A stretch of 64,000 bases of DNA from Escherichia phage HP3.2: sequence record OP978391.1. The stretch is one strand, 5' to 3'. The translations under genes and the position numbers were made by a program. The stretch's first letter is position 1. The number at the start of each line of letters is the position of its first letter. The notes beneath the pieces were generated by a model that saw only the letters and a list, made by a program, of their open reading frames with translations, made no database searches and was not told where the DNA came from. Below are positions 20,434 through 58,649 of the stretch, piece after piece.

Positions 20434-22247
20434 TGGTGTTTAACCCTATGCATGATTTCTTTATTTTTACCGAGATTAAATCCGCGTTCGTTCGGGTTTC
20501 CCAAATAACCGCATGTTCTTCTTATTGTGTTCATCTTTTTAGGATCAGTTTCTCCACAAATAGAACAAACAAACCCGTTTTCAGTAGGAGTCATTTCATG
20601 GGTACTTCCACACGTAAAACATTTATCTACTGGCATATTAACACCAAAATAATCTAAATGTTGTGCAGCATAATCCCATACAGCCTCAAGACCTTTTAAG
20701 TTATTTTTCATATCAGGAAGTTCAACATAAGAAATGTGACCACCTGTTGCAATGAAATGATACGGGGCTTCGCGAGAAATCTTTTCAAACGGAGTAATAT
20801 TTTCTTCTACTGAAACATGGAAACTGTTAGTGTACCAGCCTTTATCAGTAACATCCTTTACACTTCCATATTTTTCTGTATCAAGTTTACAGAAGCGATA
20901 GCAAAGGTTTTCAGCAGGAGTAGAATACAAGCTAAAAGCAAACCCAGTTCTTTCAGTCCACTGTTTAAGACGAGCATTCATTTTAGTTAAAATTTCCTGT
21001 CCAATATCACGACCGACAAGAATATTCAATTCGTGAATACCAATGTATCCTAAAGACACTGAACTTCTACCATTTTTAAATAACTCAATTATATCGTCAT
21101 CAGGTTTAAGACGAACCCCGAATGCACCTTCTTGGTAAAGAATAGGAGCAACAGTCGCTTTAACTCCTTTTAAGGAACTAATTCTACACATCAAAGCTTC
21201 AAAACATAAATCCATTCGCTCATTGAATAATTTAACAAATTTCTGTTCATTGAACTGTGTTCCAATATAAGAATCCAACGCAATACGAGGAAGATTCAGT
21301 GTTACAACACCAAGATTATTACGTCCATCAAGAATTTCATTACCAGTCGAATCTTTCCATACGCTCAAGAAACTACGGCAACCCATTGGAGAAACAGGAA
21401 CAGATGAACCAGTGATAGCTTTATTGTTCTTAGCTGAAATAATATCAGGATACATCCTTTTGCTTGCACACTCTAGAGCAAGCTGCTTAATATCATAGTT
21501 CGGATCGTCTTTATAAAGATTAACACCTTCTTCAACAAACATAACAAGCTTAGGGAAAATAGGAGTTATCCCATCACGACCAAGACCTTTAATACGATTT
21601 TTCAGAATTGCTTTCTGAATCATTCGTTCAGTCCAGTCAGTTCCCGTACCAAATGTAATTGTTACAAAAGGTGTTTGTCCGTTTGAACTAAAGAGAGTAT
21701 TTACTTCATATTCATAAGCTTGGAATGCATCGTATACGTCTTTTTCTGTTTTAGATTGAGCATAATTCAACGCATCAGCGATTTGCCATTTTTCTGCATC
21801 CTCAATATGTTTTGCATATGTGCGTTTAACATAAGGAGAAAGTACTTTATCTACATTCGCAAAAGTCGTTCCGCCATATTGATGGGAAGCAACCTGTGCA
21901 GTAATTTGTGCCATAATTGCAGTAGCAACACCGATTGATTTAGGAGTTTCAATCTGCGCATTACCAAGCTTAAATCCGTTCTCAAGCATTCCTTTTAAAT
22001 CTACTAAACAACAATTAGTAAATGGAAGAGCAGGGGAATAATCAATATCATGGAAATGAATAATTCCGCTTTCATGCGCTTTCATAATAAAAGACGGGAC
22101 CATATTTTTGGCAATGTGTTTAGACACAATACCAGCCATAAGGTCCCGTTGAGTTGGAAAAACACGAGAATCTTTATTAGCATTCTCGTTCAAAAGGTCT
22201 TTATTAGTTTTATGAATCAATCCTTCAATTTCTTTTTCAATTGTCAT
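20430..22247 (-). CDS. nrdD: Anaerobic ribonucleoside-triphosphate reductase NrdD (605 aa, uninterrupted)
   Basis: 605 aa; C-terminal Cys cluster CFTCGS...CSICG and glycyl-radical region; single continuous ORF. Confidence 0.9.
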   Translation of the reverse strand: MTIEKEIEGLIHKTNKDLLNENANKDSRVFPTQRDLMAGIVSKHIAKNMVPSFIMKAHESGIIHFHDIDYSPALPFTNCCLVDLKGMLENGFKLGNAQIETPKSIGVATAIMAQITAQVASHQYGGTTFANVDKVLSPYVKRTYAKHIEDAEKWQIADALNYAQSKTEKDVYDAFQAYEYEVNTLFSSNGQTPFVTITFGTGTDWTERMIQKAILKNRIKGLGRDGITPIFPKLVMFVEEGVNLYKDDPNYDIKQLALECASKRMYPDIISAKNNKAITGSSVPVSPMGCRSFLSVWKDSTGNEILDGRNNLGVVTLNLPRIALDSYIGTQFNEQKFVKLFNERMDLCFEALMCRISSLKGVKATVAPILYQEGAFGVRLKPDDDIIELFKNGRSSVSLGYIGIHELNILVGRDIGQEILTKMNARLKQWTERTGFAFSLYSTPAENLCYRFCKLDTEKYGSVKDVTDKGWYTNSFHVSVEENITPFEKISREAPYHFIATGGHISYVELPDMKNNLKGLEAVWDYAAQHLDYFGVNMPVDKCFTCGSTHEMTPTENGFVCSICGETDPKKMNTIRRTCGYLGNPNERGFNLGKNKEIMHRVKHQ

Positions 22248-31153: not shown

Positions 31154-32167
31154 TCATTTATAATAACTTCGGTGGTTTTCAAGATAAACCCTCTCAAGGA
31201 AGTCATCCCAAAAACCCATGTCTACTTTTTGCTGCATACCGTTCTTAGAAGCTTCAGTAGATGCTGCTTCTACTTGATCGACCACATCTTCCAAAAACTC
31301 TTGAACCGTTTTAAATGGATGTTTACCCAACTTCACGTCGAGAATAAATGGAGCATCTTGGAGTGGATAAACCAAGTCACCAGTTTTGTAAATTTCCAAT
31401 AGTTGGAGTCCACCACGGCAAGCATGACTCATAGCTTTCCAGTCAATACCTTCATTGGCTTCGGCCTTACGAGCACGTTCACCGTATTCAGCATCTAATT
31501 TGTTCAGTGACTGCTTAAGCTCAATAAGAGAAAGCGTTGTCTGATATTTACGACCCAACACTGTGTAGAACGTCTGTGGGCCTGTTTTCTCATGATTATG
31601 GAACACCCATTCACAGAATTCGTTTTCTGGAAGACGATGCTTAATATCTTCAACTTTAGTACGACGCTGCTTAATAGAACCATCTTCTTGGTAATCAACC
31701 CATTGCTCAGGGATTTGATTAACTACTTTCAATACATCACGTAATGCAGCCAAACGAGAACCCTTAACGCCGTATTTAGAAGCTTGCTTACGGACATATC
31801 CTAAATAGGATTTCATGTTAGTCGTATAAAAACGAGAACGGTTGTCTTGAATAAACTTCCACACATCAGGCAAATCAGATTTAACCACTAGTTCAGGTGG
31901 AGTGTGAAGCATATCTAACGCTACAGTTTCACCATCTGCTGCTAATTTAAAGAAATATTTAAGACTGTATAGTTCATGGTCAATATCATCTTTAGTGTTT
32001 TTAGATGATGTGTTGTTAGTGTTTTTACTCATGTGCTCTTTAACATTTCCGATAAGAATATCACGAGCAGGAGGAACAAAGATTTCTTTAAAATCTACAT
32101 CAGATTCTGGGGTAGAAGTTCCATAAAGATGACTACCAAAATAGCTTTTCATTACTGTTTTCATCAT
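31154..32167 (-). CDS. Predicted nucleotidyltransferase (minimal NTase / Pol-beta-like N-terminal domain), 337 aa
   Basis: N-terminal signature FGSHLYGTSTPESDVDF fits G[SG]x9-13[DE]h[DE]h; ca. 230-aa C-terminal region unassigned. Confidence 0.6.
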   Translation of the reverse strand: MMKTVMKSYFGSHLYGTSTPESDVDFKEIFVPPARDILIGNVKEHMSKNTNNTSSKNTKDDIDHELYSLKYFFKLAADGETVALDMLHTPPELVVKSDLPDVWKFIQDNRSRFYTTNMKSYLGYVRKQASKYGVKGSRLAALRDVLKVVNQIPEQWVDYQEDGSIKQRRTKVEDIKHRLPENEFCEWVFHNHEKTGPQTFYTVLGRKYQTTLSLIELKQSLNKLDAEYGERARKAEANEGIDWKAMSHACRGGLQLLEIYKTGDLVYPLQDAPFILDVKLGKHPFKTVQEFLEDVVDQVEAASTEASKNGMQQKVDMGFWDDFLERVYLENHRSYYK

Positions 32168-32625
32168 TCAGCCTTATATTCAATAACAGGACATACTTTA
32201 GCTTTACGAGCTTTTAAAAATTCAACGATAATCGATTTCTTGGGTTGAATAGGAGGTAAACCTTTATACGCCCTATCAATATTTTCTACGTGTAAAGCAT
32301 AATCCTTTTTCCATTTATAATCTTTATATTTTTCACGCAGTTGTGCAGGAATAACAAATGAACCGACAATAAGTAAAACAAGCAAAATGGCAAGTATAAA
32401 TGCTGATGGAATAAGAGTCCATAAACTACCAAAAATAAGCCATTTCTGTATGATTTCTGCGCAGATGATAGTTAGACCTACGAGTATAGTACATCCGAAA
32501 AAAGAAACGAAAAATGTAGGGATAACAATAGACCAAAAGTATGCGCACAGCGTCTTAGGTCGTTGCCATTCATCGTTAAACAATTTGAATAATTTATAGT
32601 GCCAAGAGTTTTCATTAATAATCAT
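32164..32625 (-). CDS. Membrane protein (153 aa, 2-3 TM helices)
   Basis: Hydrophobic helices IVIPTFFVSFFGCTILVGLTIICA and LIPSAFILAILLVLLIVGSFVI; 4-nt overlap with the NTase gene start. Confidence 0.55.
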   Translation of the reverse strand: MIINENSWHYKLFKLFNDEWQRPKTLCAYFWSIVIPTFFVSFFGCTILVGLTIICAEIIQKWLIFGSLWTLIPSAFILAILLVLLIVGSFVIPAQLREKYKDYKWKKDYALHVENIDRAYKGLPPIQPKKSIIVEFLKARKAKVCPVIEYKAE

Positions 32626-32627
32626 AA

Positions 32628-33149
32628 TTATCCTTTCATTGAAGGTGTAACAGTTGTTAAATACTTAATCATAGCTTCAGCTTCTGATTTTGATAATGAA
32701 ATTTCTTCATTGTTTTGACGAATAGAAATAAAATCCGGATGACGGTCACCACCAGCTTTTAAAACACACATATAAGTATCAGTTTCATCTTCAATATCTG
32801 AAATGATTGAAGCAGTTCCACATGAATGTGGTTTTTGATAAATCAATACAGCTTTTCTTCCACCGTTTGACTGTTCATAAACTTTTAACACATCAAACAA
32901 ATCGCTTCTTTTATCAATAGCTAAGATGTTGTTTTCATCTTCAATATTAAATCCTTCGGATACTTCATAAAGTGTCACCCATAAATCACCAATATCAATA
33001 ACAGCGTTCACTTTTCCATGACTTTCAAGAGCATTACAAATTTTCTTAATTTCATCATAACTCATTTTAATAATATCATCTCCTTGAATAAGGAAGATGT
33101 CATTTTTAAATTCAACACGAATTAAACCACTTCCACTTGAAATAAACAT
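32628..33149 (-). CDS. Hypothetical protein (173 aa), member of a tandem paralog pair
   Basis: C-terminus EAEAMIKYLTTVTPSMKG aligns with DEAIALKTYLDSVIPTMISK of the adjacent gene. Confidence 0.55.
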   Translation of the reverse strand: MFISSGSGLIRVEFKNDIFLIQGDDIIKMSYDEIKKICNALESHGKVNAVIDIGDLWVTLYEVSEGFNIEDENNILAIDKRSDLFDVLKVYEQSNGGRKAVLIYQKPHSCGTASIISDIEDETDTYMCVLKAGGDRHPDFISIRQNNEEISLSKSEAEAMIKYLTTVTPSMKG

Positions 33150-33155
33150 ATTTCC

Positions 33156-33713
33156 TCACTTTGAAATCATAGTTGGAATGACAGAATCGAGATAAGTCTT
33201 TAGCGCAATAGCTTCGTCTTTGGTAAATGTGACAATATACGATCGAAAATCATCAATTTGACGAATAGTTAAGACATCACCATCTTCATAGCATTTTGAT
33301 ACGTTTAAAACAGTTTCATCATTCTGATTGCAAGCGTTAGTAATAATAGCATTGCAATTTTTGAGCCATTTTAAACTATGTTTTCTTTCATTAGAATAAT
33401 AAAAATATTTAATCTTAGCTATAAAGCTATCCCAATGGATAACTGATAAACACATTGACTCACTTTTAATATTAAATCCTGGGCATGAAGAATAAAAATG
33501 AATTTTGTGCTCATCATTGATGCTTACTATTTTATCAGTATAAGGATATTCAATTTGGGTTAAATGAATGATTTCACTAGGCGTAAAATATAGCATATCG
33601 TCTTCTTGTGTCAAACGATACATATTATTTACTTTTTCTATAGCTAATTCACCAAAAAGCGGACTAACTTCTAATACTAATCGTTTCATATTGATTCTCT
33701 TCGACTCACCCAC
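33156..33713 (-). CDS. Hypothetical protein (185 aa), member of a tandem paralog pair
   Basis: Shared C-terminal motif with 32628-33149; GTG start at 33713 with AAGGAG SD (alternative ATG at 33689). Confidence 0.55.
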   Translation of the reverse strand: MGESKRINMKRLVLEVSPLFGELAIEKVNNMYRLTQEDDMLYFTPSEIIHLTQIEYPYTDKIVSINDEHKIHFYSSCPGFNIKSESMCLSVIHWDSFIAKIKYFYYSNERKHSLKWLKNCNAIITNACNQNDETVLNVSKCYEDGDVLTIRQIDDFRSYIVTFTKDEAIALKTYLDSVIPTMISK

Positions 33714-33715
33714 AA

Positions 33716-33820
33716 TTACATACTCCTTTGAATAATATCAATAATGTTGTTCACCAGATTATAAGTAAACATTGGATAATTATATTGAATCATCACATAC
33801 ACAACAAACAAAACTTTCAT
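33716..33820 (-). CDS. Candidate hydrophobic micro-peptide (34 aa)
   Basis: Hand-translated MKVLFVVYVMIQYNYPMFTYNLVNNIIDIIQRSM; strong SD AAGGAG 6 nt upstream; directly downstream of the palindrome. Confidence 0.3.
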   Translation of the reverse strand: MKVLFVVYVMIQYNYPMFTYNLVNNIIDIIQRSM

Positions 33821-33836
33821 TCTCTTCTCCTTGGCA

Positions 33837-33870
33837 GTTGACAAGATTACTATATCATAATCTTGTCAAC
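33837..33870. repeat. Perfect 13-bp inverted repeat with 8-bp spacer
   Basis: GTTGACAAGATTA-ctatatca-TAATCTTGTCAAC; on the minus strand it sits just 3' of a GTTTAC -35 box (33873-33878) and overlaps a TGaTATAGT extended -10. Confidence 0.7.
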
Positions 33871-33880
33871 TTGTAAACCA

Positions 33881-34054
33881 TTAAATGACGTTTTCAATAA
33901 AATTCTGAAGCTTTGTGTGAGCATCAACCATGATTTTCATTTCTTCCTTTGCGAAAGCTGTACCTCTTTCCCGAGCAGAATACTCATAGTCAGAAACTGC
34001 ATTAGCATATTCTTCAATTAGCTTCATTAAAAACATCTGCTTTTCAGTTTTCAT
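33881..34054 (-). CDS. Hypothetical small protein (57 aa)
   Basis: Hand-translated MKTEKQMFLMKLIEEYANAVSDYEYSAREGTAFAKEEMKIMVDAHTKLQNFIENVI; AGGTGG SD; below the ORF-track cutoff. Confidence 0.35.
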   Translation of the reverse strand: MKTEKQMFLMKLIEEYANAVSDYEYSARERGTAFAKEEMKIMVDAHTKLQNFIENVI

Positions 34055-34238
34055 TATTCCACCTAATCATTTCAAGATATTGAACTAACTTAGCTTTGGA
34101 TTTATCCAAATCCTTTTTAGCTGCTTCTATACCGTCGTATGAATATCCTTCACAATGCTCAACTGCTAATTGGTATGAATCTATTTCAATATCACGTGCT
34201 AATTTAATGATTTTTTCAAACTGTTCACGTGTTAGCAT
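34044..34238 (-). CDS. Hypothetical protein (64 aa)
   Basis: Small ORF. Confidence 0.45.
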   Translation of the reverse strand: MLTREQFEKIIKLARDIEIDSYQLAVEHCEGYSYDGIEAAKKDLDKSKAKLVQYLEMIRWNNEN

Positions 34239-34240
34239 AA

Positions 34241-34480
34241 TTAAACTCTCGTATTATGATCGATAATTTCATCAAGAAACATATCTAACGCTTCTAAAGC
34301 ATTATCAACTTTAGCTTCAAATTTTTCAATACCTTTATTTGCAATGCCTGCCGAAAACCAAGCAAAGTCACTAAGTTCCTCATCTGCTTTGCGAATTAAA
34401 GCTACCAATTCTTTAATTTTATCTGCTTGTTCAATTCTAGTCATTATTCCACCACATATGAAAGAGAGAATATTGCACAC
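34241..34480 (-). CDS. Hypothetical protein (79 aa; start possibly internal Met at 34444)
   Basis: Small acidic ORF. Confidence 0.45.
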
Positions 34481-34632
34481 GCCATATGAGTTGCAGCTTC
34501 ATCACACATATCATAACGTTTCTTAAGAAGTTCTACAAGTTCTTCACTAGTAACTTCATCCATGTCGACGAAAAAATCACCATTAATGATGACGTAGATA
34601 TTTCCTTCTTGATTAAGTGCTTCAATTTTCAT
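34444..34632 (-). CDS. Hypothetical acidic protein (ca. 62 aa)
   Basis: Start taken at [10 protein letters not shown] immediately after the early promoter. Confidence 0.45.
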
Positions 34633-34644
34633 GATGTTCTCCTC

Positions 34645-34700
34645 TTTATCCGATAGTTGTATAGTATCACAGCTCAAATGGAAAGTAAACCGGTAAAATG
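34645..34700 (-). promoter_or_regulatory. T4-type early promoter cassette
   Basis: GTTTAC (plus 34685-34690) with downstream GATACTATAC -10 region. Confidence 0.55.
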
Positions 34701-34705
34701 AAAAA

Positions 34706-34724
34706 AGTCTCCCGAAGGAGACTA
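34706..34724 (-). terminator. Intrinsic terminator
   Basis: AGUCUCC-UUCG-GGAGACU hairpin followed by UUUUUU on minus-strand RNA. Confidence 0.65.
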
Positions 34725-34727
34725 ATG

Positions 34728-35114
34728 TTATTCGAGGGAAAGAAGATATTTACTCTGGTAAAACATCCCAGTAATATCATCTATCGTGCTTTGAATGGCT
34801 GGAGGCATTTCTTTATAAATGCTGTTAGATTGGTCTAGTATGCGATCAATCATTTTAATTGTGTCGGTAGGAAGTTTACTGGCATCTGGAATAGAAGGCG
34901 TGTATTTTCTACCAGAATACCCCAAATATTGCTCACCAAATTTATCAATCAAATCTGGCAACTCAGAGAAAATAAAATCGTATGCTTTGTGTCTAGCATA
35001 ACTTTTAGTTTCAAAATGCGCAGAATGAAAATAAGCTTGTGCAGCCATTAATAAACCTAAGTATTCATCTGCCTTTGAAGGTTTTCCACTTTGTGAAAAG
35101 TCGCTGAATTTCAT
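34728..35114 (-). CDS. Hypothetical protein (128 aa), rI.-1-like by position
   Basis: ORF immediately downstream of rI. Confidence 0.5.
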
Positions 35115-41036: not shown

Positions 41037-41453
41037 TTAAATGTAAATATTTTTGCCGTAATACTTATACCAGTGTGGCTTCATTAAAATTTTTTCATCG
41101 AGTCGTTGTTGACTCAACTTAATAGCTGATTTGCATGGATTATAATCATTTTTCCATTCTACTGGAATATCGCTGATGTCAGGAACTTCAGTATCTTTTA
41201 TACTGAACCCGCGTTTTAAGCATTCCGTTATAATGTCCGATTGACGCTTTCGCAAAAATTCTAACTTATCGTAAAAGAAAGTAACATGACCAGAACCTAA
41301 AATAAATTTAGAAGATATTTTAAAATCTTTAACGCGCTTACCGTTTGCCACATGCTTACGAACTATACCAAAAACACGCGGCAATTCACGGTATTCTGCG
41401 ATTAAATGTTGATCAGCAAGTTCAGATACTAAAGTCAAATTAATACGAGTCAT
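41037..41453 (-). CDS. denV: Endonuclease V (pyrimidine-dimer DNA glycosylase), 138 aa
   Basis: 138 aa; N-terminus [29 protein letters not shown] agrees with T4 DenV. Confidence 0.85.
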
Positions 41454-41455
41454 TT

Positions 41456-41512
41456 TATCCCTCCAAGTAACTGTGAATATACTATCACAATTCTAGGAGA
41501 AAGTAAACAACT
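41456..41512 (-). promoter_or_regulatory. T4-type early promoter for denV
   Basis: GTTTAC (plus 41503-41508) -17 nt- aTAGTAT in the 59-bp e-denV gap. Confidence 0.55.
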
Positions 41513-49424: not shown

Positions 49425-49471
49425 CAGTAGTAGATAGGGTAATAGTATCACTACCCTATCTAAAAGTAAAC
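49425..49471 (-). promoter_or_regulatory. T4-type early promoter with hairpin-embedded -10
   Basis: GTTTAC (plus 49466-49471) -17 nt- ATACTAT; -10 flanked by inverted repeat GGGTA...TACCC. Confidence 0.5.
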
Positions 49472-50059: not shown

Positions 50060-50112
50060 TTGATGAGGTAATAGTATCACTACCTCATCAGTATGTAAAC
50101 AACTTTGTGAAA
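50060..50112 (-). promoter_or_regulatory. T4-type early promoter with hairpin-embedded -10
   Basis: GTTTAC (plus 50095-50100); -10 flanked by inverted repeat GAGGTA...TACCTC. Confidence 0.5.
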
Positions 50113-56364: not shown

Positions 56365-56658
56365 ATGTCAGGATTAAGTTATGATAAGTGTGTTACTGCC
56401 GGCCATGAAGCATGGCCTCCAACAGTTGTGAATGCTACACAAAGTAAAGTATTCACTGGAGGAATTGCTGTTCTCGTAGCAGGTGATCCAATTACAGAAC
56501 ATACAGAAATTAAAAAGCCATATGAAACACATGGCGGAGTGACACAACCTAGAACTTCTAAGGTATATGTCACTGGAAAGAAAGCGGTTCAAATGGCTGA
56601 TCCAATATCATGCGGTGATACTGTGGCTCAGGCATCATCTAAAGTATTCATTAAATAG
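56365..56658 (+). CDS. 5.4: PAAR-repeat spike-tip protein gp5.4 (97 aa)
   Basis: 97 aa; PAAR-like core with conserved His/Cys ([18 protein letters not shown]). Confidence 0.75.
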
Positions 56659-56666
56659 GATTTAAA

Positions 56667-58649
56667 ATGGCAAATACCCCTGTAAATTATCAATTAACAA
56701 GAACAGCAAATGCTATTCCCGAGATATTCGTCGGGGGTACGTTTGCTGAAATAAAACAAAACCTCATTGAATGGCTTAATGGCCAAAATGAATTTTTGGA
56801 TTATGATTTTGAAGGCTCAAGATTAAACGTTCTGTGTGACCTTTTGGCTTATAATACATTGTACATTCAGCAGTTTGGTAATGCTGCTGTGTATGAAAGC
56901 TTTATGCGTACTGCTAACTTACGAAGTTCAGTTGTTCAAGCTGCACAAGATAACGGATATTTACCTACTTCAAAATCCGCTGCGCAGACCGAAATTATGT
57001 TAACATGCACCGACGCATTGAATAGGAATTACATTACTATTCCTCGCGGAACTCGCTTTTTAGCATATGCAAAAGATACTTCTGTTAATCCATATAACTT
57101 CGTTTCTACCGAAGACGTTATTGCTATTCGTGATAAAAATAACCAATATTTTCCGCGTTTAAAATTGGCCCAGGGACGTATAGTAAGAACTGAAATCATT
57201 TATGATAAATTAACACCTATTATCATTTATGATAAAAATATTGATAGAAACCAGGTTAAATTATATGTTGATGGAGCGGAATGGATTAACTGGACGAGAA
57301 AGTCAATGGTTCATGCTGGTTCAACATCAACGATTTACTATATGCGTGAAACTATTGATGGAAACACTGAATTCTATTTTGGTGAAGGTGAAATTTCTGT
57401 TAATGCTTCTGAAGGAGCTTTAACTGCCAATTATATCGGAGGTCTTAAACCTACTCAGAACTCTACGATTGTTATTGAGTACATCAGTACTAATGGTGCT
57501 GACGCGAACGGAGCAGTCGGATTTTCATACGCAGATACATTAACAAATATAACTGTCATCAATATTAATGAAAATCCAAACGATGACCCAGATTTTGTTG
57601 GGGCAGATGGCGGCGGTGATCCAGAAGATATTGAGCGTATCCGCGAATTGGGTACTATTAAACGCGAAACCCAGCAACGCTGCGTAACTGCGACTGACTA
57701 TGATACATTCGTTTCAGAGAGATTTGGTTCTATTATTCAAGCAGTTCAGACTTTCACTGATTCTACTAAACCTGGTTATGCATTTATTGCTGCTAAACCT
57801 AAATCAGGTCTGTATTTAACTACTGTACAGCGCGAAGATATTAAAAATTATCTCAAAGACTATAATTTAGCTCCTATTACGCCATCAATTATTTCTCCTA
57901 ATTATCTTTTTATTAAGACTAATTTAAAAGTCACATATGCTTTAAATAAGCTGCAAGAATCCGAACAGTGGCTCGAAGGTCAAATAATTGATAAAATTGA
58001 TCGTTATTATACCGAAGATGTAGAAATTTTTAACTCGTCTTTCGCTAAATCTAAGATGTTAACTTATGTAGATGATGCAGATCATTCTGTCATTGGTTCA
58101 TCAGCGACTATTCAAATGGTTCGTGAAGTACAAAACTTCTATAAAACACCTGAAGCAGGTATTAAATACAATAATCAAATAAAAGATCGTTCTATGGAAT
58201 CTAATACGTTTTCATTTAATTCTGGACGAAAGGTTGTAAATCCTGATACTGGTTTAGAAGAAGATGTATTATATGATGTTCGTATAGTATCAACAGACCG
58301 AGATTCTAAAGGAATTGGTAAAGTTATTATTGGTCCATTTGCTTCTGGCGATGTTACAGAAAATGAAAACATTCAGCCATATACAGGCAATGATTTTAAT
58401 AAATTAGCAAATTCTGATGGACGCGACAAATACTATGTTATCGGTGAAATAAATTATCCGGCTGACATGATTTATTGGAATATCGCTAAAATTAATTTAA
58501 CATCTGAAAAATTTGAGGTTCAGACTATTGAATTATATTCTGACCCAACCGATGATGTTATCTTTACCCGTGATGGTTCACTGATTGTATTTGAAAATGA
58601 TTTACGTCCGCAATACTTAACTATCGATTTGGAGCCTATATCACAATGA
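56667..58649 (+). CDS. 6: Baseplate wedge protein gp6 (660 aa)
   Basis: 660 aa as in T4 gp6. Confidence 0.9.
   Translation: MANTPVNYQLTRTANAIPEIFVGGTFAEIKQNLIEWLNGQNEFLDYDFEGSRLNVLCDLLAYNTLYIQQFGNAAVYESFMRTANLRSSVVQAAQDNGYLPTSKSAAQTEIMLTCTDALNRNYITIPRGTRFLAYAKDTSVNPYNFVSTEDVIAIRDKNNQYFPRLKLAQGRIVRTEIIYDKLTPIIIYDKNIDRNQVKLYVDGAEWINWTRKSMVHAGSTSTIYYMRETIDGNTEFYFGEGEISVNASEGALTANYIGGLKPTQNSTIVIEYISTNGADANGAVGFSYADTLTNITVININENPNDDPDFVGADGGGDPEDIERIRELGTIKRETQQRCVTATDYDTFVSERFGSIIQAVQTFTDSTKPGYAFIAAKPKSGLYLTTVQREDIKNYLKDYNLAPITPSIISPNYLFIKTNLKVTYALNKLQESEQWLEGQIIDKIDRYYTEDVEIFNSSFAKSKMLTYVDDADHSVIGSSATIQMVREVQNFYKTPEAGIKYNNQIKDRSMESNTFSFNSGRKVVNPDTGLEEDVLYDVRIVSTDRDSKGIGKVIIGPFASGDVTENENIQPYTGNDFNKLANSDGRDKYYVIGEINYPADMIYWNIAKINLTSEKFEVQTIELYSDPTDDVIFTRDGSLIVFENDLRPQYLTIDLEPISQ

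Follow-up and report, generated by a model that had tools for sequence, protein, structure and literature searches.

An early promoter within a conserved stem-loop: a PeSL-type cassette upstream of mobD.2 in Escherichia phage HP3

The short intergenic region preceding mobD.2 in Escherichia phage HP3 carries an ordinary T4-type early promoter whose -10 region lies in the loop of a conserved stem-loop, that is, a PeSL-type cassette. PeSLs consist of an AT-rich region, an early promoter, a stem-loop and the Shine-Dalgarno (SD) sequence and ATG of a small gene, and are found in hyperplastic regions (Arbiol et al. 2010, PMC2839356; Comeau et al. 2014, PMC4122927). As an overall explanation of the element, a composite cassette of this type, joining an early promoter to a transcript-boundary hairpin, is given a probability of roughly two in three. 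The window referred to throughout is the whole 64-kb stretch of DNA that was analysed, which is a 100% match to phage HP3, a T4 relative.

The promoter, the inverted repeat and mobD.2

In T4 terms, the minus strand of the locus reads mobD.2a, mobD.2 and mobD.1. The gap between mobD.2a and mobD.2 measures 60 nt and contains both the promoter and a perfect inverted repeat, the arms of which (33836-33849 and 33858-33871) are 14 nt each, 100% complementary and separated by 8 nt. The palindrome described in the sequence-only reading is therefore real as a perfect inverted repeat, with arms of 14 bp that are one base longer than reported. It is the longest perfect short-loop inverted repeat of the 64-kb window. 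By an arithmetic estimate, about 0.01 repeats with 14-bp arms are expected, and first-order shuffles gave such a repeat in 0/40 cases and one of 13 bp in 1/40. The sense RNA folds at -22.8 kcal/mol (z = -5.9), a stability reached by none of 200 shuffles, with G-C pairs at only 4/14 positions of the HP3 stem. T4 has an identical palindrome except for one loop base (TGgTATAGT). A further 4-bp extension of the stem, UGGU/GCCA, is present in HP3 and T4 and was left out of the stem because it is not conserved in Mosigvirus. An Rfam scan of positions 33000-35000 at E up to 1 gave no match, and copies of the arm motif with up to two mismatches are no more numerous in the window than in shuffled sequence.

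The promoter and the hairpin are interleaved on the minus strand. An AT-rich, UP-element-like stretch (33879..33903; 80% A+T over 25 nt vs 65% in the whole window) overlaps the 3' end of mobD.2a; such an upstream region belongs to the published descriptions of both PeSLs (PMC2839356) and T4 early promoters (PMC2988021). Next comes the -35 element GTTTAC (33878-33873), with the sigma-70 hexamer TTTACA at 33877-33872. GTTTAC is unchanged in every orthologue aligned and fits the TTTACW consensus of T4/PST PeSLs (PMC4122927). The 5' arm of the hairpin, AGTTGACAAGATTA (33871-33858), fills the promoter spacer and covaries with the 3' arm. The extended -10, TGaTATAGT (TGATATAGT, 33857-33849), ends on the T with which the 3' arm begins, and the 8-nt loop (TGATATAG, 33857-33850) plus this T spells TGaTATAGT. 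Finally, the 3' arm, TAATCTTGTCAACT (33849-33836), covers the predicted transcription start (33841..33843), located 6-8 nt past the -10 as expected from sigma-70 geometry. Initiation would accordingly fall near 33842, inside the 3' arm. A search of the literature found no paper mapping T4 start sites or 3' ends.

Several observations agree with this assignment. A consensus scan returned TTTACA-17-TATAGT with TG, matching at 10/12 positions, and the record of phage Lutter annotates the element as 'promoter'. The GenBank records of PST and T4 hold no promoter or PeSL features at the locus. The earlier proposal of a promoter made of a GTTTAC -35 and a TGaTATAGT extended -10, with the palindrome around it, is thus supported, the promoter being of the T4 early type.

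Beyond the 3' arm lies GCCAAGGAGAAGAGA, followed by the ATG at 33820. This part of the leader reads GCC-AAGGAG-AAGAGA-ATG, with a spacer of 6 nt from AGGAG to ATG, and the SD sequence GGAG together with its A-rich tail (GGAGAAGAGAA, 33820..33830, minus strand) resembles a RegB site. The gene that it precedes, mobD.2 (33820-33716, minus strand; 34 codons, MKVLFVVYVMIQYNYPMFTYNLVNNIIDIIQRSM), belongs to phrog_3515 (E = 6.5e-22) and is annotated in T4 and HP3. Matches to it were obtained by tblastn in 843 phage records. Homologues from six genera are 32-36 aa long and share invariant Y8, Q12, Y13, P16, F18, T19, Y20, N21 and V23, while dN/dS across the six genera is mostly 0.1-0.4, at saturated dS. 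Judged by this conservation, mobD.2 is a real small gene, and the micro-ORF pointed out from the letters is confirmed as an SD-preceded gene under purifying selection, the mobD.2 of T4. The T4 protein was undetected by proteomics (PMC9697503 Table S2), as would be expected for a 34-aa peptide. Its description as very hydrophobic was somewhat overstated: the peptide is moderately hydrophobic (GRAVY 0.68), with a continuous hydrophobic run of only ~10 N-terminal residues.

The neighbouring genes are also on the minus strand. mobD.2a (33881..34054; 57 aa, phrog_2758) has its stop codon 9 nt before the 5' arm of the hairpin. On the other side, a MobD.1 paralogue (33156..33713; a 185-aa ORF, 177 aa in RefSeq) starts just past the mobD.2 stop, and a second one (32628..33149; 173 aa) follows; PST names the pair MobD.1-1 and MobD.1-2. 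The two are the tandem paralogue pair noticed earlier, and the relationship holds: the 185-aa and 173-aa products are 27% identical (E = 2e-8) and both fall in phrog_1502. An AGGAG for the next gene lies within the last codons of mobD.2, which suggests translational coupling from mobD.2 to mobD.1.

Selection for complementary arms

A related-locus search with MobD.1 found only 4 close loci; more diverse homologues were gathered by tblastn with the peptide and by a degenerate DNA pattern. In the resulting alignment of 10 sequences (A3), 96.4% of cells are paired and 6/14 pairs are altered on both sides. The covariation observed was reached in 0/500 shuffles, and registers slid along the alignment pair 24-64% of cells. 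The loop is invariant but for the 'n' of TGn, as seen in Tequatrovirus, in Mosigvirus and in a paralogous element at the dmd promoter.

Within Tequatrovirus, one or two A-to-G substitutions, confined to the 5' arm, occur in phages PST, Lutter and ZN18 and in three IMG/VR contigs. With changes of the PST type, A-U pairs become G.U on the sense strand, while the other strand would have C.A mismatches; in general, one-sided arm changes yield G.U pairs on the gene strand only. The arms of Mosigvirus (AV111, F2, JM10 and phiE142), CTTGGTAGGACTA and TAGTCCTA(C/T)CAA, show three to four differences, all fully compensated. Further away, arms were found upstream of mobD.2 in Serratia phage CHI14 (Winklervirus; GAGAGGGCAT and ATGCCCTCTC) and in Salmonella phage CGG4-1 (Gelderlandvirus, S16-like; ATGATGAGATA and TATCTCATCAT), and in both the -10 region likewise lies within the loop. 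Four genera therefore have four unrelated arms before the same gene (Tequatrovirus AGTTGACAAGATTA, Mosigvirus CTTGGTAGGACTA, Winklervirus GAGAGGGCAT and Gelderlandvirus ATGATGAGATA), and the four stems fold at -18 to about -22 kcal/mol (z -3.9 to -5.9). The CHI14 copy combines an intact stem with a degenerate -10 (TAAAAG). Karamvirus and Jiaodavirus have mobD.2 without promoter or hairpin, the gene overlapping or being coupled to the one upstream, indicating that the element is dispensable for mobD.2 expression and that the cassette is modular.

Together, these comparisons show selection for complementarity between the arms, with a bias towards the sense strand. Conserved complementarity without conserved sequence is the signature of a folded single strand rather than of a protein-binding dyad.

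The same arrangement recurs at other early promoters. Strict matches to GTTTAC-N15/16-TGnTAnnnT number 13 in the window, all on the gene strand and all sharing the geometry of the mobD.2 promoter, and three of them have a stem scoring >=10 around the -10 (three also at >=12), against a background of 0.1-0.3% for TAnnnT sites (p ~1e-5 or lower). In the complete T4 genome, a stem of >=8 bp brackets the -10 at 7/30 consensus early promoters, namely those of motB.2, dmd, mobD.2, ipIII, ipI, cd.2 and frd.1, compared with 1.6% of background TAnnnT sites (p = 5e-7). The sense fold was more stable than the antisense fold in 9/9 T4 elements examined. The only other perfect repeats of >=10 bp in the window, at 49431-49462 and 50061-50090, map to the internal-protein locus, between 57B, the IP genes and trna.4. 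On the minus strand, both have GTTTAC ahead of the 5' arm, a loop with gTGaTACTAT, and then the 3' arm followed by SD and ATG; their arms are unlike those of mobD.2 and carry mirrored changes between the two copies.

The mobD.2 element has a paralogue, GTTTACAAGCTGACAAGACTATGGTATAGTAGTCTTGTCGGTT, at the T4 dmd promoter, with 37/43 nt identical, and the differences between them are either mirrored in both arms or give G.U pairs. This paralogue is outside the window and was located in T4. A 39-nt match in phage ERS-1 was considered as a cassette in a foreign context and rejected, as it is ERS-1's own promoter in the 41/dmd intergenic region.

These patterns bear on the suggestion, made when the repeat was first noticed, that the palindrome is a dimeric-repressor operator, at which a protein of the phage or its host would bind the duplex and occlude the -10. 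Such an operator would account for the 14-bp dyad, which in both HP3 and T4 is perfect and has the -10 at its centre, and the similar dyad at the T4 dmd promoter might in principle be recognised by the same regulator. However, an operator should conserve a symmetric half-site, whereas here the arms covary or are replaced altogether, with four unrelated sequences at the orthologous position. The common one-arm A-to-G changes, as in PST, Lutter and ZN18, break the symmetry of the duplex while keeping pairing on the sense strand, and the mirrored changes between the two T4 copies are predicted by a hairpin and not by a shared repressor. In addition, six other T4 early promoters have the same geometry with unrelated arms, and the two internal-protein repeats of the window, laid out alike with different arms, point the same way. 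The shut-off of T4 early promoters is generally ascribed to AsiA/MotA and to changes made to RNA polymerase by modification rather than to repressors at operators, which also counts against an operator. The claim is not supported, and an operator is considered very improbable.

Another possibility is that the repeat acts as DNA, for instance as a cruciform or non-template hairpin that helps promoter melting, or as a recombination hot spot, and has no function in RNA. Supporting this, PeSL crossovers have been mapped within or adjoining the stem-loop and PeSL mini-circles have been detected (PMC2839356), and T4 has two copies of the cassette, one at dmd and one at mobD.2. When Tequatrovirus and Mosigvirus DNA are compared, similarity begins precisely at the G of GTTTAC and ends with the last codon of mobD.2 (query 83-242, 72-75% identity), so that its edges coincide with the cassette; the flanking proteins are only 36-47% identical, and an unrelated 69-aa ORF is inserted upstream in this comparison. 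G.T wobble is tolerated in single-stranded DNA, and a hairpin of the non-template strand fits the variants as well as RNA does. A cruciform, however, needs pairing on both strands, and PST-type variants would place two C.A mismatches on the other one. Homologous recombination needs no self-complementarity, yet complementarity is conserved across unrelated arms, and the intact stem of CHI14 beside a degenerate -10 argues against a purely promoter-melting role. A function confined to DNA is consequently judged unlikely.

Chance would be the simplest account of all, given an AT-rich genome in which one of 40 shuffles yields a 13-bp perfect repeat. It is hardly credible in view of the covariation, the four independent arm sequences and the enrichment of such stems at early promoters.

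A possible transcript-boundary role

The preferred reading, a composite of early promoter and boundary hairpin, assigns different structures to two kinds of RNA. Host sigma-70 RNA polymerase would use the AT-rich region, GTTTAC and TGaTATAGT and start at about 33842. With the start placed within the 3' arm, RNAs made from this promoter would lack the 5' arm and be unable to form the hairpin; they would have a roughly 22-nt unstructured leader, from which mobD.2 and the downstream mobD.1 genes would be translated. T4 mobD.2 RNA is classed as early (PMC9697503 Table S2). Transcripts initiated upstream, at the mobD.5 promoter near 34690, would carry both arms. In this read-through RNA, a hairpin of 14-15 bp (predicted at -20 to -23 kcal/mol) would start 9 nt past the mobD.2a stop and mark the 3' boundary of the upstream transcription unit.

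The likely source of read-through RNA containing the hairpin is the mobD.5 promoter itself, part of an upstream cassette (34661..34723, minus strand) that comprises a terminator and the mobD.5 early promoter with its GTTTAC at 34690. The terminator is canonical, AGTCTCC-UUCG-GGAGACT with a U-run at 34723-34706, and the promoter follows directly. For the mobD.2 hairpin, a role as a transcript-boundary element may be exerted by attenuation or by protection of 3' ends. More specifically, the boundary could arise through polymerase pausing or attenuation, through a block to 3'-to-5' exonucleases after a cut at the adjacent GGAG by a RegB-like activity, or through both. The strong RegB consensus is GGAGRAYARAA (PMC3014915). 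As a match of letters only, GGAGAAGAGAA agrees with it at 10/11 positions in HP3 and T4, and the Mosigvirus orthologue GGAGAACAAAA at 11/11.

Because promoter and hairpin share a very short spacer, the arms would have been placed where the promoter leaves freedom, in the spacer and from +1 to +13, while the constrained -10 became the loop. The conserved cassette of ~45 nt may also double as a short homology for the shuffling of modules.

An efficient intrinsic (Rho-independent) terminator of the mobD.5-mobD.2a transcript would be a related but distinct explanation. A stable stem does stand directly after the mobD.2a stop codon, and the authors of the PeSL work call their stem-loops effective terminators, from one lacZ assay (PMC2839356). 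The HP3 stem, however, is followed by GCCAAGGAG, with no U-run on either strand, and its orthologues and paralogues all lack a U-run too. A terminator scan of both strands does not call the stem, yet calls the canonical terminator 850 nt upstream (34723-34706). Without a U-tract the stem is not a canonical intrinsic terminator, and efficient intrinsic termination is doubtful. The terminator hairpin that the sequence-only reading held in reserve was in this sense closer to the published view of PeSLs than its operator, though not in the canonical form.

The hairpin might instead act on translation. In an insulator of the type known from T4 e, soc, 49 and I-TevI, the read-through hairpin would hide the mobD.2 ribosome-binding site, leaving translation to RNAs that start at the embedded promoter. 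mobD.2 shares the layout of those T4 cases, in which the 5' part of the structure contains the promoter (PMC3014915). In addition, T4 early-promoter TIRs as a class have a computed SD accessibility of 0.32 in long vs 0.59 in short RNAs, and the drop is larger than for control TIRs (0.29 vs 0.07, p = 2e-6). At mobD.2, however, 4 nt separate the end of the stem from the AGGAG of the SD sequence, and the accessibility of SD and AUG from the partition function is not consistently lower in the long form: the long/short values are 0.41/0.32 in HP3, 0.48/0.66 in T4, 0.39/0.32 in PST, 0.62/0.40 in AV111 and 0.66/0.61 in CHI14. By contrast, the hairpin at the HP3 denV promoter masks the SD, with 0.14 in the long and 0.51 in the short form. 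Masking of the SD or AUG by the mobD.2 hairpin was rejected for want of a consistent difference between the long and short forms, and insulation of this kind is thought improbable at mobD.2.

More tentatively, the hairpins of the mobD.2, dmd and ipI type could be part of a wider design in which the DNA of T4 early promoters also encodes RNA able to pair with the leader that follows it. Read-through RNA would be either capped by a hairpin (mobD.2, dmd, ipI) or masked at the SD (denV in HP3; motB.2, regB and 30.9 in T4), and small early genes would each be expressed mostly from their own promoter. Two observations support such a design: stems that bracket the -10 occur at roughly one in four T4 consensus early promoters, and in long RNAs SD accessibility falls more across the class than it does in control TIRs. 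Alternatively, the complementarity may simply result from a pyrimidine-rich promoter spacer standing opposite a purine-rich SD. The SD-masking signal of the early-promoter class is a small testable lead on insulation among T4's many tiny early genes.

Place among PeSLs and related elements

The element is of a kind already described, and it is assigned to that kind by sequence-level features, all of which are present. For the T4/PST pair, the PeSL promoter consensus is TTTACW-N17-TAYWAT (PMC4122927); the mobD.2 promoter reads TTTACA-N17-TATAGT with TG at -15/-14, its -10 departing from TAYWAT by one base (G for A). The stem-loop is a perfect 14-bp stem around the -10 supported by covariation, the upstream region has 80% A+T in 25 nt vs 65% for the window, and AGGAG with a 6-nt spacer leads into the mobD.2 ATG. 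The location is hyperplastic, as gene content near the cassette varies among T4, HP3, PST and Mosigvirus, with the mobD endonuclease, ORF098/099, an extra MobD.1 paralogue and the inserted 69-aa ORF as variable neighbours.

To the known class, the present analysis adds covariation across genera, the sense-strand bias, the dmd paralogue and genome-wide enrichment, none of which changes the classification. For annotation, the appropriate label for the dyad is an early promoter overlapped by a stem-loop (PeSL type), not an operator or an intrinsic terminator, and mobD.2 should be retained as a real micro-gene. As their arms occupy otherwise unconstrained promoter positions, the mobD.2 and dmd elements are also clean substrates for mutations that disrupt and restore pairing.

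Compared with published PeSLs, the mobD.2 element is alike in the order of the cassette, the intergenic site in a hyperplastic region, the overlap with the -10, the TTTACW and N17 features, and its conservation and duplication as a cassette. PeSL stem-loops lie mostly between the -35 and -10 or overlap the -10, and their proposed roles are as a terminator or attenuator of upstream transcription and as a recombination linker (PMC2839356). One difference is that the mobD.2 stem brackets the -10, whereas the legend for PST puts the stem-loops just upstream of the promoter (PMC4122927). Another concerns the mobD.2 stem itself, which is AT-rich and lacks a U-tract. For such stems, terminator activity is putative: the sole PeSL terminator assay, with lacZ, used a different stem-loop, from phage phi1, and phi1 stem-loops often contain polyG/polyC tracts (PMC2839356). 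In the T-even versions, T4 early promoters are combined with stems that are weaker, rich in A+T and variable in size (PMC2839356). The elements of the T-even IP locus (Repoila et al. 1994, via PMC2839356) likewise join T4 early promoters to weak, AT-rich and variable stems. The IP-locus elements in the window have a geometry identical to that of mobD.2, while their locus and arms differ and their perfect stems measure 10-11 bp vs 14.

Other systems share single features with the element. The leaders of T4 e, soc, 49 and I-TevI (PMC3014915) likewise hold a promoter in their 5' half, such that folding is limited to long RNAs and does not occur in RNAs started at the embedded promoter. Their embedded promoters are late ones (TATAAATA), and their SD or AUG is sequestered, whereas mobD.2 has an early sigma-70 promoter and a free SD. 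Canonical intrinsic terminators have in common with it a stable stem-loop after a stop codon, and differ from it in that the mobD.2 stem has no U-tract and few G-C pairs (4/14). Lambda-type repressor operators over promoters resemble it in the dyad symmetry centred on the -10; here, however, it is complementarity and not sequence that is conserved, and the half-sites are asymmetric in natural variants.

Possible translational masking at early promoters

The early-promoter hairpin upstream of denV (window about 41440-41508, minus strand) has a stem that extends into the Shine-Dalgarno (SD) sequence, where the GGAGG of denV is paired with CUCC of the promoter spacer. This SD has a computed accessibility of 0.14 in the read-through RNA, compared with 0.51 in RNA initiated at the promoter itself; for the AUG the two values are 0.01 and 0.54. 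As modelled, the hairpin would be a translational mask on an early promoter, similar to those of T4 e and soc.

For T4, SD accessibility was compared between 27 early-promoter translation initiation regions (TIRs) and 89 control TIRs (T4 genome; L034, L001 and L035-L037). As a class, early-promoter TIRs have an SD accessibility of 0.32 in long, read-through RNAs and 0.59 in short RNAs that start at the embedded promoter. The gap between long and short RNAs is larger for early-promoter TIRs than for controls (0.29 versus 0.07; Mann-Whitney p = 2e-6). Several T4 spacers also contain anti-SD strings, such as TCCTCTT opposite AAGAGGA upstream of regB. Both the masking signal and these strings may simply reflect base composition.

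Small genes around mobD

Gene content at this locus differs between T4 and HP3. The HNH homing endonuclease mobD of T4 is absent from HP3 (window 32164-33149 versus T4 56429-57208), its place being taken by two other genes, one for a second MobD.1 paralogue of 173 aa and one for a membrane protein of 153 aa (phrog_944). PST carries the same two genes, plus two more small ORFs. The annotated length of mobD.2a also differs, at 38 aa in T4 (L001 10050-10166, equal to T4 58049-58165) and 57 aa in HP3 (window 33881-34054). The 116 nt past the T4 stop codon align closely with HP3 coding sequence, and on this alignment the T4 reference gene appears to be a frameshifted copy.

Judged by sequence similarity, mobD.2a, mobD.3, mobD.4, PST ORF099 and two 59-aa ORFs of Mosigvirus look like one small paralogous family, with members of 57-64 aa and blastp E values from 1e-12 to 3e-3 (window 33881-34677; sequences L008 and L012). 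In some records one of these proteins is labelled 'helicase loader', solely on the basis of a weak PHROG match (E = 0.0014). In RefSeq (NC_041919.1, NC_000866.4 and others), several of these small ORFs bear the name 'molybdopterin-guanine dinucleotide biosynthesis protein MobD'. The name is apparently an artefact arising from mobD as a T4 gene symbol, where it denotes a mobile endonuclease. The taxonomy line of the HP3 RefSeq record reads 'Rosemountvirus', while the sequence itself is that of a Tequatrovirus.

Other signals and copies of the promoter/hairpin cassette

Directly after rI.-1 lies a canonical terminator, AGTCTCC-UUCG-GGAGACT with a U-run (window 34706-34723, minus strand), and immediately 3' of it is the mobD.5 early promoter (34661-34690, minus strand). 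This terminator-then-promoter order is the layout drawn for PST. On the plus strand, a consensus scan called an antisense promoter-like site, TTGGCA-16-TATCAT, at 33831-33858 (10/12 matches). The call arises because the loop of the mobD.2 hairpin is nearly self-complementary, and the site is probably incidental.

The dmd early promoter, in the 41/dmd intergenic region (T4 20570-20612, L034; also L010 601-645), carries a paralogous mobD.2 promoter/hairpin. The two copies are identical at 37 of 43 nt, and their differences are either mirrored across both arms or yield G.U pairs, so the cassette was duplicated in this genome. The internal-protein locus (57B, IP genes and trna.4) has a pair of perfect minus-strand hairpins, with 11-bp and 10-bp arms, around the -10 of early promoters (window 49431-49462 and 50061-50090). 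Their loop, gtgatactat, is identical, and their arms show mirrored changes between copies.

In an orthologous cassette of Serratia phage CHI14 (L014, about 347-395), GTTTAC is retained and the G+C-rich stem is perfectly paired over 10 bp, but the -10 is TAAAAG, without the final T. This hints that the stem can persist where the promoter is poor. The CHI14 cassette resembles the 'degraded' promoter-early stem-loops (PeSLs) of Comeau et al., which have a -35 and a stem-loop without a -10.
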